DNA of 64,000 nt, taken from the NCBI GenBank assembly GCA_965116875.1, contig OZ220733.1:256001-320000 (forward strand), read 5' to 3'. The stretch is from Candidatus Latescibacterota bacterium. Lineage in GTDB: Bacteria > Latescibacterota > UBA2968 > GCA-2709665. Below the pieces are notes generated by a model that worked only from the letters and a program-made list of their open reading frames with translations, made no database searches and was not told the origin of the DNA. The position numbers were made by a program, and so were the translations under genes. Each line of letters starts with the position of its first letter. Within the stretch, counting starts at the first letter, position 1. Positions 1 through 18,352 of this stretch are shown here, one piece after another.

Positions 1-1
1 C

Positions 2-553
2 GGACGTCAGGTTCCAACGGGGTTCCGAACATTTGATTTCCAGCCACGTAAATTTCGGGATTTCATCTGATCCCCAGGCTTCCTTCAACCCGGAGATCGG
101 CAGACTTCCTCGGAACAACTTAGTTGGCGATGGATCTACAATATGTACCATGTCCATTTCGTCGTCGTACCCAGCAAGAATAACGGCGTGAGACGAATGA
201 TGGCCTAGTCCCGGATAGTAGTAACGTTCTAGATAATACGTGTCGGCTACCGCCGGTACCGGAACGCCCTCATCTATTCGCGACTTAGCGCATTTCCAGG
301 CAGTTTCACCATCTCGTTCGTGATGCACTGTTACATGAATACCACATTGTCTTAATCTCGTCTGAAAATGAGTGATACGTGGACTAATTTTCACTTCTGC
401 ACTGCCTTCCAGTTGGTATGAGAAATACCACTCGTCGTGCAATACGGTGGCAGTCGTGTACCCAAAAAACTGCAACATTACATCTAATGCCACATAATCA
501 CAGGGATACGAATCGCAATCGCAGAAAGGAATTCCGGATATAAGTCGTCCCAT
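2..553 (-). CDS. BtrH N-terminal/C39-like (papain-fold) protein, truncated at the left window edge
   Basis: Absent from the ORF track because there is no stop in the window. Manual translation from ATG at 553: MGRLISGIPFCDCDSYPCDYVALDVMLQFFG...RIDEGVPVPAVADTYYLERYYYPGLGHHSSHAVILAGYDDEMDMVHIVDP. The Cys...H-x-V-I-L-x-G-Y-D...V-x-I-x-D pattern is typical of BtrH_N/C39-like proteins. AAGGA precedes the start. Confidence 0.7.
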   Translation of the reverse strand, partial: MGRLISGIPFCDCDSYPCDYVALDVMLQFFGYTTATVLHDEWYFSYQLEGSAEVKISPRITHFQTRLRQCGIHVTVHHERDGETAWKCAKSRIDEGVPVPAVADTYYLERYYYPGLGHHSSHAVILAGYDDEMDMVHIVDPSPTKLFRGSLPISGLKEAWGSDEIPKFTWLEIKCSEPRWNLTS

Positions 554-13465: not shown

Positions 13466-16400
13466 TCAACGCAGACCATAACGCGTCATCATCTTCTGAA
13501 GTCCATTTCGGCTGAGACCTAAATGAGCGGCAGTATGAGAAATGTTCCCCTTGCATTTGTCAAGTGCCGCGGCTATCATCCTTTTTTCAAGGGCAGCCAC
13601 CTCCGATTTTAGATGTCCTCGCGAACCTTGTTCGGCGTCTTGACGATGTTCAATCCTCTTCGAGAATAGATCGACGGAAACCTTCTTTCCTTCTTCAACC
13701 AACGCAACCGCGCGTCTTATCTCATTCTGCAATTCACGGACATTGCCCGGCCACGCGTGATCCATTAATCCCCGCATTGCACCCACTGTAAAGCCCAGTA
13801 CTTCCTTTCCCTGCTCCGAAGAAACACGCTTCAGTATATGTTCCGACAACGAAGGGATGTCCTCAATACGGTCACGCAGTGGAGGCATTTCAATCTGTAA
13901 AACGCGCAGCCGGTAATACAAGTCCTCCCGAAAAAGACCGGCACGCACGTCCGCTTCCAGGTCGCGATTCGTCGCTGCAATCACCCGAACGTCTACGTGG
14001 CGAACATTAGTCTCTCCTACTCGCTGTGTCTCCCCATCCTGCAGTACGCGCAACAGGCTTATTTGCAATTGCGAAGAGGCATCCCCGATTTCGTCTAGAA
14101 ACACGGAACCGCCCTCCGCGGAGGCGAATAGTCCCTTGCGGTCGGATGAAGCCCCGGTAAATGAGCCTCTCTTGTGACCGAACAGCTCGCTCTGAAGCAG
14201 TTCGTGGGTAAGCGCCCCGCAATTTGCGGAGAGAAAGGGTTTCGCCTTGCGGTTGCTCCGGGTATGGATAGCCCGGGCGGCCAGTTCCTTCCCCGTTCCC
14301 GTCTCACCCTGTATAAGCACAGTCATGTCGCTTTCAGCCGCCACGTCGACCAGTTTGAACACTTCCTGCATCAGCTGACTCTGTCCGATAAGTTCTCCCA
14401 TTCGGTAGGTGCCCTCGTATTTTTCCTGGAAAAAAAGTGCCTGCTCCTGGCTCCGGGAGAACATCCGGGCGTTGACAACCGCAATGGAGGCCAAATTCGC
14501 AAATGCCGCAAACAAGGCTGTGTCTTCTTCGCGAAACAAATCTTCTAGCTTTCTATGGTCCAAATACAGCGCGCCGATGACACCCGATTCCGCATGCCGC
14601 AGTGGAACGCAAAGCACCGATCGGATGCCGTAGGCCGAAACGCTGGCCCTTTTTCTGAATCGATCGTCAACGCGAGCATCCAGACTCAATACGGGCTCGT
14701 GCCGCTGCATCGACCACCTGATTATTCCCTCGCTGATCTCCCTTGCAGCTAAGTCATCCAGATTATACTTACGCGCAACCTTGACGCGACCGGCTGCCCC
14801 ATCCTCGATAGCAATCAAAACACGTTCGGCCTGGCTCACCTTCTTCAGTCGGTCCAGAATTCGATCAAGTAGCACATTCAGGTCCAAGACCGACGTCAAA
14901 TCTTCGGATACTTCATAAAGGGTCTGCAGATGCTCTTGGGAAAGCGCCGTAACCTTCGCCTCTGGTGTAATAGTCATCGCAGTTTCCTCAATAACCAGGT
15001 TTAGGAGATCCGCTGCCTTTCGGGCCAGATAACGCAGATTCAAGCGTTCGGCAGCCTCACGGGCATTTTCCAGGCACCCTCGGGCATCGGCAAGACGCCG
15101 CCGTTCCAGATAATACGCGCCCGCTACAACGAACAGGTTTACCTGTTCCAAGCCGTCCGGGGAACCCTGGACTTCCAATGCATGATCAATCAGGGAATCG
15201 ACTTCGTCATGACGGTCGGCCGCGACGAGCGATTTCGCCTTTGCGGTCCATGCAATGGCGCGGACATTCCCGCCGTACTCCACGCCCGGCCAGGCCCGTT
15301 CGGCCCAGGCCAGCGCCTCTTCAACACGGCCGGTTTCCGCGAGTGTCTCGGCCAGCAACGCATGGGCGCGGCACATTTCATCGGAGCGGCCGGTACCCGA
15401 CAGAAGCCGCACTGCGGCACCCGCGTGTGCTTCTGCAGCCTCGGCATCTCCGTTTTCCAAGGCAACCCTGCCCAAAAACACGAGTGATCCTGCCTCCGCA
15501 GGTCTCGAACCGCGTTTGGCCCAAAAGTCTTTAAGCTCAAGGAAAATCTCCTCGGCCCGATCAAAATTACCCAACCGATTCTCTGCACGTCCCAAAAGGA
15601 AAAGACAGTTATGGCGATAAGCTCGATCGCCGTTCCTCTCTAATAGATTTAATGAAGAGTCCAGGAGCTTTTTCGATCTGTCATTACGATAAGTAAACTG
15701 CGCTGCAAACCCCAGATGCATCAAAGCACGGGCTTCGTTGATAGACCCTCCCATTTCGCGGCATTTTTCAGCTGCTGAATGACAAAATCCCGCAGCAACC
15801 TCTTTTTTCCCTAGCGCCACGTAGAGATTTGACAACAGACCCAAAACCCTAAGTTCATTCTCCGCCTCGCCCTGATTCCGGAAGAGTTCCAGCGCTTCTA
15901 ACAACATCGACTCAGCTCTTTGGCAGTCCCCGCCATTCACGTAGGTAATTCCTAAAATCCTCAACACATTCGCCCTTTGCGCGGGCATTTCAAAGGACGC
16001 CCACTGCATGGCACCTTCCAACTCGCGGCGCGCGTCTTCGTACCTGCCGCATCCGCAAAGCGCTTCGGAGTAAGCGCAGAGAAAGTCGAGATGCATCACC
16101 GAACCGCGCGCAATGCAAACGGGGGCATCAGGGGAAAACGCGCCTTTTTTGAGAACAGTTCGGAACTGTTCGAGTGCGTGCGAGAAATATTGCATCCCCA
16201 ATGCAAAGCGGCCGGATAAGGTGACGTACCGCGCCATTTTTTCCAGGTCGTTCGATCTCAAAAAGTGATAGGCCAATTCATCCAATGACTCTGCGGCGCC
16301 GCAATCCAACCGTCTTTCTAAGGCGCTGCCTGCCTCCTGGTGAAGCAACGTACGTCTGTTTAACGATATGCCGTCGTAAACCGCCCGTTGGATCAGTCCA

Positions 16401-18352
16401 TGTGAGAACCGATAACGTCCACGAGGGTCCTGCATATCTCTCAAAAGGCCCAGGCTGACGTTTGCATCCACCGTCTCCAATAACTCCAGTTCATCCTCGC
16501 ACCAGACGTCTGAAATCAGCTCGAACGAAAACGCGCCGCGAAAGATTGATGCATATTCCAGCGCCTGCCTTTGGGCCGAACGAAGTCGTCCCAGGCGCAA
16601 CTTGATGGCCTGCATAATGCCCGACGGCATTGGCCATTCCGTCTCCTTCGGCCACCTCCAAATTCCTGTTGAATCCTTCCATATCAAGCCGTCGGCAATT
16701 GCTCCCCGAACCAATTCTACGACAAACAGTGGATTCCCCCCAGTTTCCTGGAAAACCCTACGATTCTCTTCCTCAGGTACAGCCTGTTCTCCAAGCAGGG
16801 ACGCAGCCAGATTCCCAGTTTCGTCCATATCGAGAGGCTGGAGACGAAAATGTTCAGCTCGAGTTCCAATTGGCCCATCTGTCAGGTCGTCGATTCCAGG
16901 GGGTAGCGGATCTTCGTCCACCTTGCGGCAAGCGAGCCCGAAGACGAGAGGTACGGGATCCGGATCTCTCCTCACAAAGTCCAGGAACCGCAGGGTCAGG
17001 TCGTCGGCCCACTGCACGTCTTCAATGCATACAAGGGTCGGCGTTTCCCTGCTCAGATCGACGAGAAGTTCCGACAAGGTCTCCATCGCCGGGTACGGAT
17101 CCGGCTGATCGGCGGGCGCCGGCCGTTCAATTTGCGTAAGAACTCGCTTGACGGATTCTTCCAGGTCTGGACCCCGAACGCCGGTCTGATCGGCCAGGTC
17201 TCGCAGGATTTCCAGGAATGGCCCAAAGGCTTGGCCCCCGCTCTCATAGCAACGTCCTGATTGTACGCGCATTCCGTTGACGCGGGCGTCGGCCTGGAAT
17301 TCTTCAAGAACTTGGGTCTTCCCGATGCCAGCACTGCCGCTCACGAGAATGATGCGCCCTATACCCTCGCGAGTATCCTGCAGGATCTTCCGTAGAGCCT
17401 TCATCTCACGTTCTCGACCCTGGAACTGGGGTTGGAAAACGGGAACGTCTGGGGCACCCAAGACAGGCCGCATTGAAACGGTAGCTTCGTCACCGTCTCT
17501 ATAGAATCCGCTTTCCTCGTTATTCGTCAAATCATACAGCAAGCTCCCTACCGAACTGTAGCGGTCAATGGGTTCCTTCTCGAGAAGCTTCATTACTGAC
17601 TCTTCGATCCCCGAGAAATCTTCGCCGGTTACAAGGTGCGGAGGGCGCGGCAATTCTTTCAGATGCTGAAGCAATACCGTTGCTGGATCTTCTCCCGTGA
17701 ATGGTGGTTTCCCGGTAAGAATCTCGTAAAGAATGACTCCCAATGAATAAAGGTCGGATCGCTGGTCAACTGCCTTTCCCCGGATCTGTTCGGGGGACAT
17801 GTACTCCAAGGTCCCGGTAGCCGCTCCGGGAGCCGAGAGGCGTTCCTCCCTTACATCTCTAAATCGCGCCAGACCCAGGTCCAGAATCGTAACCTCGGGC
17901 TTACCCTCAATCTCTGAAATCATAATATTTGAGGGCTTCAGGTCTCTGTGCAACACACCCTGTTCATGGATGTATCCCAACCCTTCTACAGTCTGGCGGA
18001 TAAAGGGAACGAGCCACGCGGATTTTAGCTTTTCACGATCATCTACTCCTGAAATCAGGTCGGACAAGGGACGACCATGGACAAAGTCCATGGAAAAATA
18101 CGGACTCCCGTCGTGCGCGCCCCAGCTGTGTGAAATAACAACTCGAGGATGTCGGATTCGAGACAAGATATTAAACTCCCTCAGAAATCGCCTTTGTGCC
18201 CCGTCCCCCGTGAGATCTAATATCTTAAGCGCTGTAATGGAATTTTTCCGTACGTCCCGCGCACGATAGACGGTACCTAAACCTCCATTTCCAACGGTAT
18301 TGAGGATCTCGTAACACCCGTCGACAACCGTGCCAGCCTTTAATTCGGACAT
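13466..18352 (-). CDS. Ser/Thr kinase-AAA-TPR-GAF-sigma54 enhancer-binding protein with Fis-type HTH
   Basis: Kinase motifs [20 protein letters not shown] and YMSPE; NTPase [11 protein letters not shown]-like helices; GAF (IRSVLCVPL); bEBP motifs [30 protein letters not shown] and WPGNVREL; C-terminal HTH. Confidence 0.95.

Follow-up and report, generated by a model that had tools for sequence, protein, structure and literature searches.

The left end of a 64,000-nucleotide stretch from Candidatus Latescibacterota bacterium (GCA_965116875.1, contig OZ220733.1) carries a long run of peptide-maturation genes, and the question it raises is whether these genes serve one pathway or more than one. 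The stretch, called here the window, corresponds to C1:256001–320000 of genome G000, which consists of a single contig of 5.45 Mb. An earlier, sequence-only reading described the run as one system, in which a kinase-type sigma-54 activator controls two precursors that are crosslinked and acylated to give a lipo-ranthipeptide. Each gene listed in that reading was recovered among the translations and the open reading frames (ORFs), and all of them lie on the minus strand. Comparison with related loci led us to the conclusion that the region is probably made up of two separable peptide-maturation modules standing side by side, and not of one proven lipopeptide pathway.

Module A comprises the activator (regulator), its promoter, precursor 1 and a radical SAM/SPASM enzyme, a set that recurred in 11/11 loci examined. 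Module B runs in the order propeller, precursor 2, redoxin, ATP-binding cassette (ABC) exporter, rhodanese, S8-TIGR04066 fusion, acyl carrier protein (ACP), 200-aa gene, BtrH-like protein, adaptor and resistance-nodulation-division (RND) pumps; this full order was found again at loci L052, L132 and L133, and in rearranged form at L131 and L134. The gap between the radical SAM gene of Module A and the propeller gene of Module B is 486 bp, and since the contigs of four out of four independent sequencing runs span this junction, the adjacency is not an assembly artefact. Genes in related loci were taken from our own ORF calls and matched to the window proteins by blastp or phmmer, so that divergent genes may have escaped, and the related genomes are not independent samples.

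The two modules occur apart in related genomes

Evidence on this point came from genomes that carry one module without the other. Four genomes of family f3 (G152, G106, G098, and G120) possess Module B, two of them with a precursor-2-type peptide, and the best match to the radical SAM enzyme in these genomes reached 34–38 bits at 26–28% identity and was located more than 100 kb away. In family f3 as a whole, the radical SAM family was detected in 0/64 genomes, the TIGR04066 domain in 38/64; in the phylum, the domain was present in 72 of 151 genomes versus 21 (4 of the 46 genera) for the radical SAM family. Module B also occurs without a radical SAM gene at L014 of G010, where it ends in lysyl-PG synthase-type and Era-type GTPase genes, and the radical SAM trio of this genome (activator, precursor 1, radical SAM enzyme) is situated on another contig. 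The trio itself was found without S8 and ACP genes in six of nine further loci. Around 16 S8-TIGR04066 genes, an ACP homologue was present in 15 loci (directly adjacent in 14) and a radical SAM homologue in only two, namely the near-identical locus of G009 and, as a weak one, L026. Public collections yielded 26 loci with matches, and in the flanks of the 12 that are titled Latescibacterota no radical SAM homologue was present. Loci without the linkage thus exist for both modules, which is an outcome that the sequence-only reading itself had named as refuting its proposal.

The precursors are also set apart by their control and their leaders. A sigma-54 site precedes precursor 1 in all 11 loci, whereas none was detected within 400 nt upstream of the 14 precursor-2 genes (background 0.024 sites per 400 nt, from 4.39 Mb scanned on both strands), which does not support the proposal that both precursors are under sigma-54. 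The leaders of the two precursors share no motif, and the two modules have diverged differently from G009, as described below.

These data have to be weighed against several observations in favor of a single pathway, in which the radical SAM enzyme would crosslink one or both precursors, the S8-TIGR04066, ACP and BtrH-like proteins would trim and N-acylate them, and the resulting lipo-ranthipeptide would be exported, all under the kinase-activator. The modules are neighbors with the same orientation in the window, and no more than 15 kb separates them in six genomes (G000, G009, G027, G030, G035, and G089). Such pairs make up 6 of the 61 same-contig pairs in ten genomes, with about 0.3 expected by computation from the coordinates, and as the six cases fall in three S8-TIGR04066 subtypes, they represent at least three independent events. 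In the other 14 public loci, which belong to other phyla, a SPASM radical SAM gene was found within 10 kb in eight cases (Rosettibacter, Methylocapsa, Treponema, and several Clostridia), and at one of these, L072, ACP and BtrH-like genes were found as well; these eight enzymes are of other clades, TIGR04463-like or PapB-like, and all score below the cut-offs. Outside the phylum, the cassette thus does operate with SPASM enzymes. Furthermore, the trio encodes neither a protease nor an exporter, both of which Module B could supply, and as no strong terminator was detected between the radical SAM and propeller genes, transcripts from the sigma-54 promoter may read through. Taken together, we consider a single pathway unlikely. 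We concluded that the S8-TIGR04066/ACP cassette serves for processing and tailoring in combination with changing partners, and that in this lineage it acts on its own precursor family without a neighboring radical SAM enzyme. A regulatory or a facultative biochemical link between the two modules is possible.

Table 1. Features of the two modules and their surroundings in window coordinates (bit scores with profile names; cut-offs where given)
Feature	Position	Strand	Basis or remark
Module A, extent	18352-11362	-	comparative genomics
Module B, extent	10875 to ~18 kb left of window	-	comparative genomics
Regulator, 1628 aa	13466..18352	-	Pfam: Pkinase 161.5 bits, AAA_16 97.2, TPR/MalT-TPR, GAF 59.7, Sigma54_activat 227.7, HTH_8 39.6
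Terminator-like hairpin behind regulator gene, 8 pairs then T-run	13213..13234	-	sequence
Putative sigma-54 -24/-12 element, GG-N10-GC	13184..13199	-	9/11 consensus letters; ~105 nt upstream of precursor-1 start
Precursor 1, 72 aa	12861..13079	-	ORF with GGAGGA ribosome site
Radical SAM/SPASM maturase, 485 aa	11362..12819	-	Radical_SAM 57.5 bits, Fer4_12 27.9 bits
Exported six-bladed NHL/DUF5128 beta-propeller, 407 aa	9652..10875	-	profile match and N-terminal segment
Precursor 2, 73 aa	9121..9342	-	ORF with GGAGG site
Membrane-anchored thioredoxin-fold protein (redoxin), CQPC motif, TlpA/MauD-like	7790..8482	-	AhpC/TSA 23.1 bits, below cut-off 26
ABC exporter, permease and ATPase, no C39 peptidase domain	6068..7750	-	profile matches
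Membrane-anchored rhodanese domain protein	5355..5846	-	profile matches and hydrophobic segment
Subtilase (QhpE-like) fused to TIGR04066/DUF1611 Rossmann and P-loop domain	3327..5243	-	Peptidase_S8 99.8 bits; cytoplasmic
ACP, 87 aa, phosphopantetheine Ser42	3076..3339	-	PF00550 45.7 bits, cut-off 20.8
Doubtful ORF	2459-2770		no family match; between ACP and BtrH-like genes
Kelch lipoprotein gene, not part of the system	1326-2462	-	insertion 1248..2554 between ACP and BtrH-like genes
BtrH_N/DUF4872 protein, first 184 codons	1..553	-	BtrH_N 48.5 bits; gene continues left

The regulator, its promoter and precursor 1

The regulator combines a Ser/Thr kinase, an AAA_16 (STAND) ATPase, a TPR/MalT-like sensor part, a GAF domain, a sigma-54 AAA+ activator domain and a Fis-type helix-turn-helix (HTH). 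Its translation contains the loop motif GSFTGA, NifA/NorR-type models of NCBIfam were matched, and the lack of any hydrophobic or transmembrane segment indicates a cytoplasmic protein. In nine out of nine further loci, a homologue of this gene lies directly upstream of the radical SAM gene, with a small ORF between the two.

The -24/-12 element noted upstream of precursor 1 by the sequence-only reading was confirmed by comparison: each of the 11 loci with a homologous precursor 1 has such a site, with 9–11 of the 11 consensus letters. The bare pattern is not above chance in the window (37 matches with up to two mismatches vs. 55.6 expected), so that the support for the promoter comes only from its conservation. 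The element was also the top match in the whole window of a position matrix, which included the element itself. Loci of genus g6 have a comparable hairpin and T-run ahead of the promoter. Together with the activator domains of the regulator and the single rpoN gene of the genome (202.3 bits), these data support the sigma-54 control proposed for the precursor-1 and radical SAM genes, and the predicted promoter logic of Module A can be regarded as shown by conservation.

Precursor 1 consists of a conserved N-terminal leader motif, Cys38, a Pro-rich motif and a variable tail. Alignment of ten sequences, from which L042 was left out owing to its unclear start codon, revealed the invariant residues M1, N14, G21, C38, P47, and P49; the window peptide has two further Cys, neither of which is conserved. 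Precursor 1 matched no Pfam family and, at E up to 10, no NCBIfam model.

Some additional observations were made around the trios. In genus g6, a conserved 77-aa protein without Pfam match is encoded directly 3' of the radical SAM gene (L045 9560–9793; L046 near 15738), which is absent from the window. Upstream of the regulator, another strain's contig has 435 different bases in place of 18353–18781. The neighboring SBP_bac_5 ORF at 18643–19839 matches only positions 131–363 of the 368 positions of its profile and therefore may lack the N-terminal third.

The radical SAM enzyme scores below the cut-offs of the named equivalogs

The radical SAM enzyme contains a CX3CX2C motif and eight C-terminal Cys, and is cytoplasmic according to the analysis of hydrophobic segments. 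The GTG codon at 12819 was assigned as its start because homologues align from residue 42–51 of the ORF. With Pfam SPASM it scored 17.6 bits, under the cut-off of 21.5. The closest solved structure is CteB (5WGG, E 6.4e-57), and named SCIFF maturases are approximately 30–35% identical to it. However, its scores remained under the cut-offs of every named equivalog (SCIFF 245.4/425, PapB 237.4/340, QhpD 229.1/453, nif11 246.4/518.7, and CcpM 150.2/500). The N-terminal 110 residues gave a weak match to PqqD, the RiPP (a peptide made on the ribosome and modified after translation) recognition element (RRE) (17.2 bits, E 0.0066, cut-off 23.4), and several homologues with 60–69% identity have a precomputed PF05402 match. 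When 41 related genomes were searched with the enzyme, 17 had a match at E up to 1e-20.

Module B encodes a second precursor family together with export proteins

Precursor 2 begins with a basic leader that ends in an IYAYE-type motif, which is followed by a hypervariable, aromatic and acidic core with a conserved Cys pair. Residues M1, L4, K6, Y19, C49, and C60 were invariant in the alignment of 11 sequences, and the cores, apart from that of the near-identical strain, were 22–30% identical to the window peptide. The sequences of the family thus give the usual picture of a conserved leader and a hypervariable core. The family was detected in 14 loci (window, G009, L014, L052, L054, L027 (=L062), L045, L047, L074, L028, L046, L131, L132, and L135), where it accompanies the propeller, redoxin and S8-TIGR04066 genes. 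No NCBIfam model (at E up to 10) and no Pfam family was matched, and as the same was found for precursor 1, a QhpC-like or CLI_3235-like identity of either precursor was rejected.

In related loci, the propeller gene adjoins the precursor-2-type genes. The redoxin, which falls short of the AhpC/TSA cut-off in the window, has homologues in other loci that reach 75.2 and 31.8 bits, and the rhodanese gene occupies the same position in L052, L054, L131, and L132. Propeller, redoxin and rhodanese have one N-terminal anchor or signal each. The Cys pair of precursor 2 and the periplasmic CQPC protein suggest a disulfide, and the RND set at the far end of the module suggests release across the outer membrane. 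The diderm export layout of the earlier reading was supported.

Two intergenic gaps of Module B (5876–6056 and 9411–9591) contain copies of a 181-nt repeat that are 71% identical; metagenome contigs pile up on and join across these copies, which indicates a multi-copy element. At position 8565, in the interval between precursor 2 and redoxin, G009 and contigs of two other runs are about 470 bases longer, so the window represents the short form.

The S8-TIGR04066 fusion, the carrier protein and the question of acylation

The S8 domain of the fusion protein matched QhpE best among the NCBIfam models (143.8 bits over nearly the whole length, cut-off 165). The second part scored 38.4 bits with DUF1611 (PF07755, cut-off 25) and 103.7 bits with TIGR04066 (E 1e-29, profile positions 2–286 of 361), the latter being under the cut-off of 200; clostridial S8-TIGR04066 fusions score similarly (99.5 and 82.4 bits). 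The kinship of the S8, DUF1611 and ACP genes with the TIGR04066 cassette was supported. The P-loop motif G-T-x4-G-K-F was invariant in both sets of sequences inspected (28 and 17), and the profile of the domain matched PDB entry 2G0T (E 8.3e-9). The fusion has many paralogues in the order, and a profile search at E up to 1e-30 collected 801 clusters at 50% identity, mostly of fused forms. Selenocysteine, suggested by a "1 TGA" flag in the 40%-identity group, was rejected: the ORF of L027 is uninterrupted (638 aa), and the flag appeared because the match runs past the gene's own stop.

The ACP, like the fusion, is predicted to be cytoplasmic from the analysis of hydrophobic segments; its Ser42 was invariant in 21 out of 21 sequences and always stands in a D/N-S motif. 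The sequence-only reading compared the locus with a known set of radical SAM, S8, TIGR04066 and TIGR04069 genes; the ACP is not TIGR04069 by profile (14.1 bits, E 0.048, cut-off 70) and scored 42–47 bits with ordinary ACP models. The genome has one phosphopantetheinyl transferase gene of the ACPS family (69.1 bits).

The cluster continues past the left edge of the window, as had been predicted. Completion of the BtrH-like gene gave a cytoplasmic protein of 335 aa with scores of 47.6 bits for BtrH_N (cut-off 29.7) and 37.5 bits for DUF4872 (cut-off 28), in which His122 and a G-Y-D motif are nearly invariant among the homologues; in a sequence search against solved structures, no match was obtained at E up to 1. 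BtrH-like and ACP genes were found in one cluster in the window, L052, L066, L132, and L133, and the BtrH-like gene of G010 is a 75-codon remnant. In the genome of the window, the complete BtrH-like gene is followed by an HlyD-type adaptor and two AcrB-type pumps, and farther left by a TPR/GWxTD protein, an IS4-type transposase, a 201-aa gene, an IS3 fragment and a second TPR/GWxTD protein.

Our reading of Module B, that it serves to furnish the peptide with an acyl or aminoacyl group from the carrier, is tentative, its chance being somewhat short of even. Only 3 of the 13 aligned family members retain the putative N-terminal Cys that would act as nucleophile in the BtrH-like protein. No gene for an acyl ligase, a polyketide synthase (PKS) or a fatty acid synthase (FAS), and thus no acyl-loading enzyme, was detected within the cluster or over the 18 kb beyond the window's left edge, so that acylation through the ACP is no more than plausible. 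Moreover, the module may be impaired in this particular genome. Between its ACP and BtrH-like genes, a Kelch gene has been inserted that is flanked by 62-nt direct repeats (1248–1309 and 2493–2554, 84% identical) and is absent at the equivalent position in L052, L066, L132, and L133. These four loci carry there the conserved 200-aa gene (no Pfam family), which a search of the intergenic gaps of the window from the ACP through the Kelch to the BtrH-like gene did not detect (no match at E < 0.01); its 201-aa homologue, at L003 3898–4503, is displaced to about 14 kb left of the window, beyond the IS4 transposase and beside the IS3 fragment. The 62-nt element matches dozens of places in the genome, and Kelch paralogues carrying it form an array near 3.10 Mb.

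In an explanation without acylation, the BtrH_N/C39-like protein would be a free-standing leader peptidase of papain fold that replaces the domain missing from the exporter. The ACP-like protein and the P-loop domain would act as a scaffold or ATPase in peptide handling, and what is secreted would be an ordinary peptide with a disulfide bridge. In its favor, a match of the BtrH-like protein to Peptidase_C39_2 was obtained (27.5 bits), the exporter has no peptidase domain of its own, no loading enzyme is encoded nearby, and the core Cys pair is conserved in the presence of a periplasmic CQPC redoxin. However, the invariant Ser within its D/N-S motif is unexpected for a mere scaffold, and the S8 protease is already there for leader removal. 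The nearest named relative of the BtrH-like protein, and its only NCBIfam match, is the acyltransferase DarH, though at 33.1 bits versus a cut-off of 300. Group transfer is likewise indicated by the GNAT and glycosyltransferase genes of sister loci, which fit such chemistry. Other S8-TIGR04066/ACP loci (L017, L020, L045, and L046) contain genes for GNAT, CAAX-protease, Yip1, MauE, GT28-like, GT2-like, DUF354 and UDP-glucose dehydrogenase proteins; the cassette seems to occur together with a variety of sets of tailoring genes. We regard this explanation as unlikely, too.

Proposed course of maturation

The chemistry that we infer for the two modules can be outlined as follows. In Module A, the cytoplasmic kinase/STAND/TPR/GAF activator would drive the -24/-12 promoter and thereby the synthesis of precursor 1 and the CteB-like enzyme. 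The latter may bind the precursor-1 leader through its N-terminal RRE-like domain and, judging from its kinship with CteB and the SCIFF maturases, may join Cys38 by one thioether to a carbon atom of a residue that lies within the Pro-rich motif or behind it. Thioether formation is the known activity of CteB/SCIFF-type enzymes. In Module B, the cytoplasmic S8-TIGR04066 fusion is expected to recognize and remove the precursor-2 leader, as suggested by its likeness to QhpE, and the TIGR04066 P-loop domain, the holo-ACP and the BtrH-like protein would attach the carrier-borne acyl or aminoacyl group. The TIGR04066 domain, which has an invariant P-loop and almost always adjoins an ACP, would either load the carrier or transfer from it, with the BtrH-like protein as the transferase or a second transferase. 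The ABC exporter would then carry the peptide to the periplasm, where the CQPC redoxin and the rhodanese may handle the conserved Cys pair and the NHL propeller may bind the peptide, before it leaves across the outer membrane by way of the adaptor and the two RND pumps.

Mosaic divergence from a close strain

The window and G009 are otherwise about 99% identical, and Module B follows this pattern (~99.5% nucleotide identity), whereas the radical SAM gene is 96.8%, the precursor-1 region ~92% and the part of the regulator encoding residues 218–1117 ~86% identical. The synonymous divergence (dS) was 0.005–0.025 for the Module B genes, 0.07 for the radical SAM gene, 0.20 for precursor 1, 0.04 for residues 1118–1628 of the regulator, which contain its output domains, and 0.32–0.37 for its residues 218–1117, so precursor 1 and the sensor part of the regulator are the two tracts that were imported or have diverged. 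In precursor 1, 20 of the changed codons were nonsynonymous and six synonymous, giving a ratio of nonsynonymous to synonymous divergence (dN/dS) of 0.76. This mosaic was seen in one genome pair only. In seven paralogous trios the TPR part was always the most diverged domain, which alone is no proof of co-evolution with the peptide.

A more speculative view, to which we assign a low probability, is that Module A is a strain-specific signal circuit. The modified precursor 1 would be the ligand of the TPR/STAND sensor, the activator would drive the peptide's own promoter, and peptide and sensor would be exchanged jointly as "pherotypes". Its repeated occurrence next to Module B would tie signaling to the discharge of a disulfide-bridged peptide that the S8-TIGR04066/ACP/BtrH cassette has acylated by means of the carrier protein.

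Relation to known systems

With the CteB, PapB and QhpD maturases, Module A shares the CX3CX2C core, the Cys-rich SPASM end and a Cys-bearing precursor directly upstream, to which the weak PqqD/RRE match at the N-terminus may be added. In contrast to those systems, precursor 1 has one invariant Cys and a Pro-rich motif instead of six Cys or repeated Cys-X3-Asp, and this type of enzyme is without exception accompanied by a kinase/sigma-54 activator and a -24/-12 promoter. The regulator resembles the TOMM kinase/cyclase family TIGR03903 in having an N-terminal Ser/Thr kinase, AAA_16 and TPR parts beside a precursor gene (253.6 bits in three stretches, under the cut-off of 705.75), but its output part is GAF, sigma-54 AAA+ and HTH rather than a cyclase.

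The TIGR04065–TIGR04069 cassette of Firmicutes likewise brings together an S8 protease, a TIGR04066-type protein, a small carrier-like protein and an ABC exporter. An example is the SacP23 cluster of Paenibacillus polymyxa #23, which contains a TIGR04068 radical SAM protein, TIGR04066, TIGR04069, a subtilase and an ABC transporter, whose roles are likewise annotations only (PMC10731318). Module B differs in that S8 and TIGR04066 are fused and TIGR04066 is scored below its cut-off, the ACP is of the ordinary PP-binding type, and no TIGR04065-type precursor is present; furthermore, the neighboring radical SAM enzyme does not qualify as CcpM, sister genomes do without it, and BtrH-like, propeller, redoxin, rhodanese and RND genes are added.

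The quinohemoprotein amine dehydrogenase maturation system (QhpC/D/E/F) also has a radical SAM enzyme, a cytoplasmic subtilase, an ABC exporter, a small peptide with Cys and acidic residues and a periplasmic propeller; there, the subtilase removes the leader and the propeller is the periplasmic partner. Module B is distinguished from it by six NHL blades and by its ACP, BtrH-like and RND genes. That Module B matures a crosslinked small subunit kept on the periplasmic propeller, as in quinohemoprotein amine dehydrogenase or methylamine dehydrogenase, with no secreted product, is very improbable: the QhpE-like S8 domain, the QhpD-related enzyme next door, the exporter, the exported propeller, the Cys/Trp/Asp-rich small peptide, the MauD-like redoxin and the MauE of sister loci (96.2 bits) would fit, but the hypervariable cores do not suit a catalytic subunit, QhpC was not matched at E up to 10, all Qhp models stayed under their cut-offs, the conserved RND efflux set points to export and the cluster showed no gene for a haem or flavin partner.

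The butirosin and DarH systems share with Module B the combination of a small ACP with a BtrH_N/DUF4872 protein. In butirosin synthesis, BtrH transfers an acyl group from the ACP BtrI. The acceptor here would be a ribosomal peptide and not an aminoglycoside or a resorcinol, and an ATP-grasp loader like BtrJ is missing. DarH and BtrH appear together in a paper on a dialkylresorcinol/aryl-polyene cluster (PMC3949708).

Fatty-acylated RiPPs such as lipolanthines, goadvionins and selidamides embody the same idea of a ribosomal peptide that is given a carrier- or CoA-borne acyl group. They use PKS/FAS or GNAT enzymes, neither of which is encoded in the window, though a GNAT gene stands directly upstream of the S8-TIGR04066 gene in sister Module B loci. 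We know of no described role for a DUF1611 and BtrH-like pair in these systems.

Literature searches yielded no paper linking DUF1611 with RiPPs, or BtrH with a radical SAM enzyme and a precursor peptide. Titles and abstracts on ranthipeptides and acyl carrier proteins offered nothing on point, papers on ranthipeptides in Latescibacterota gave genome-mining counts only, and none of the papers found stated a function of the S8-TIGR04066 cassette. These searches also found no characterized product, in line with the earlier reading. Both modules are therefore uncharacterized systems whose kinds are known from bioinformatics; they contribute two new precursor families, and do not yet constitute a demonstrated lipo-ranthipeptide system.

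Significance

For genome mining, this locus teaches that the pathway was made to look larger than it is by adjacency in a single genome. The regulator/precursor/radical SAM trio offers a compact system for asking what role single-thioether peptides play in an uncultured phylum. The S8-TIGR04066 cassette with its carrier protein is a large and unstudied one, and the definition of a precursor family with a recognizable leader makes it testable now. If the carrier Ser does bear an acyl or aminoacyl group that is passed on to a ribosomal peptide, the cassette would represent a new route to acylated RiPPs.

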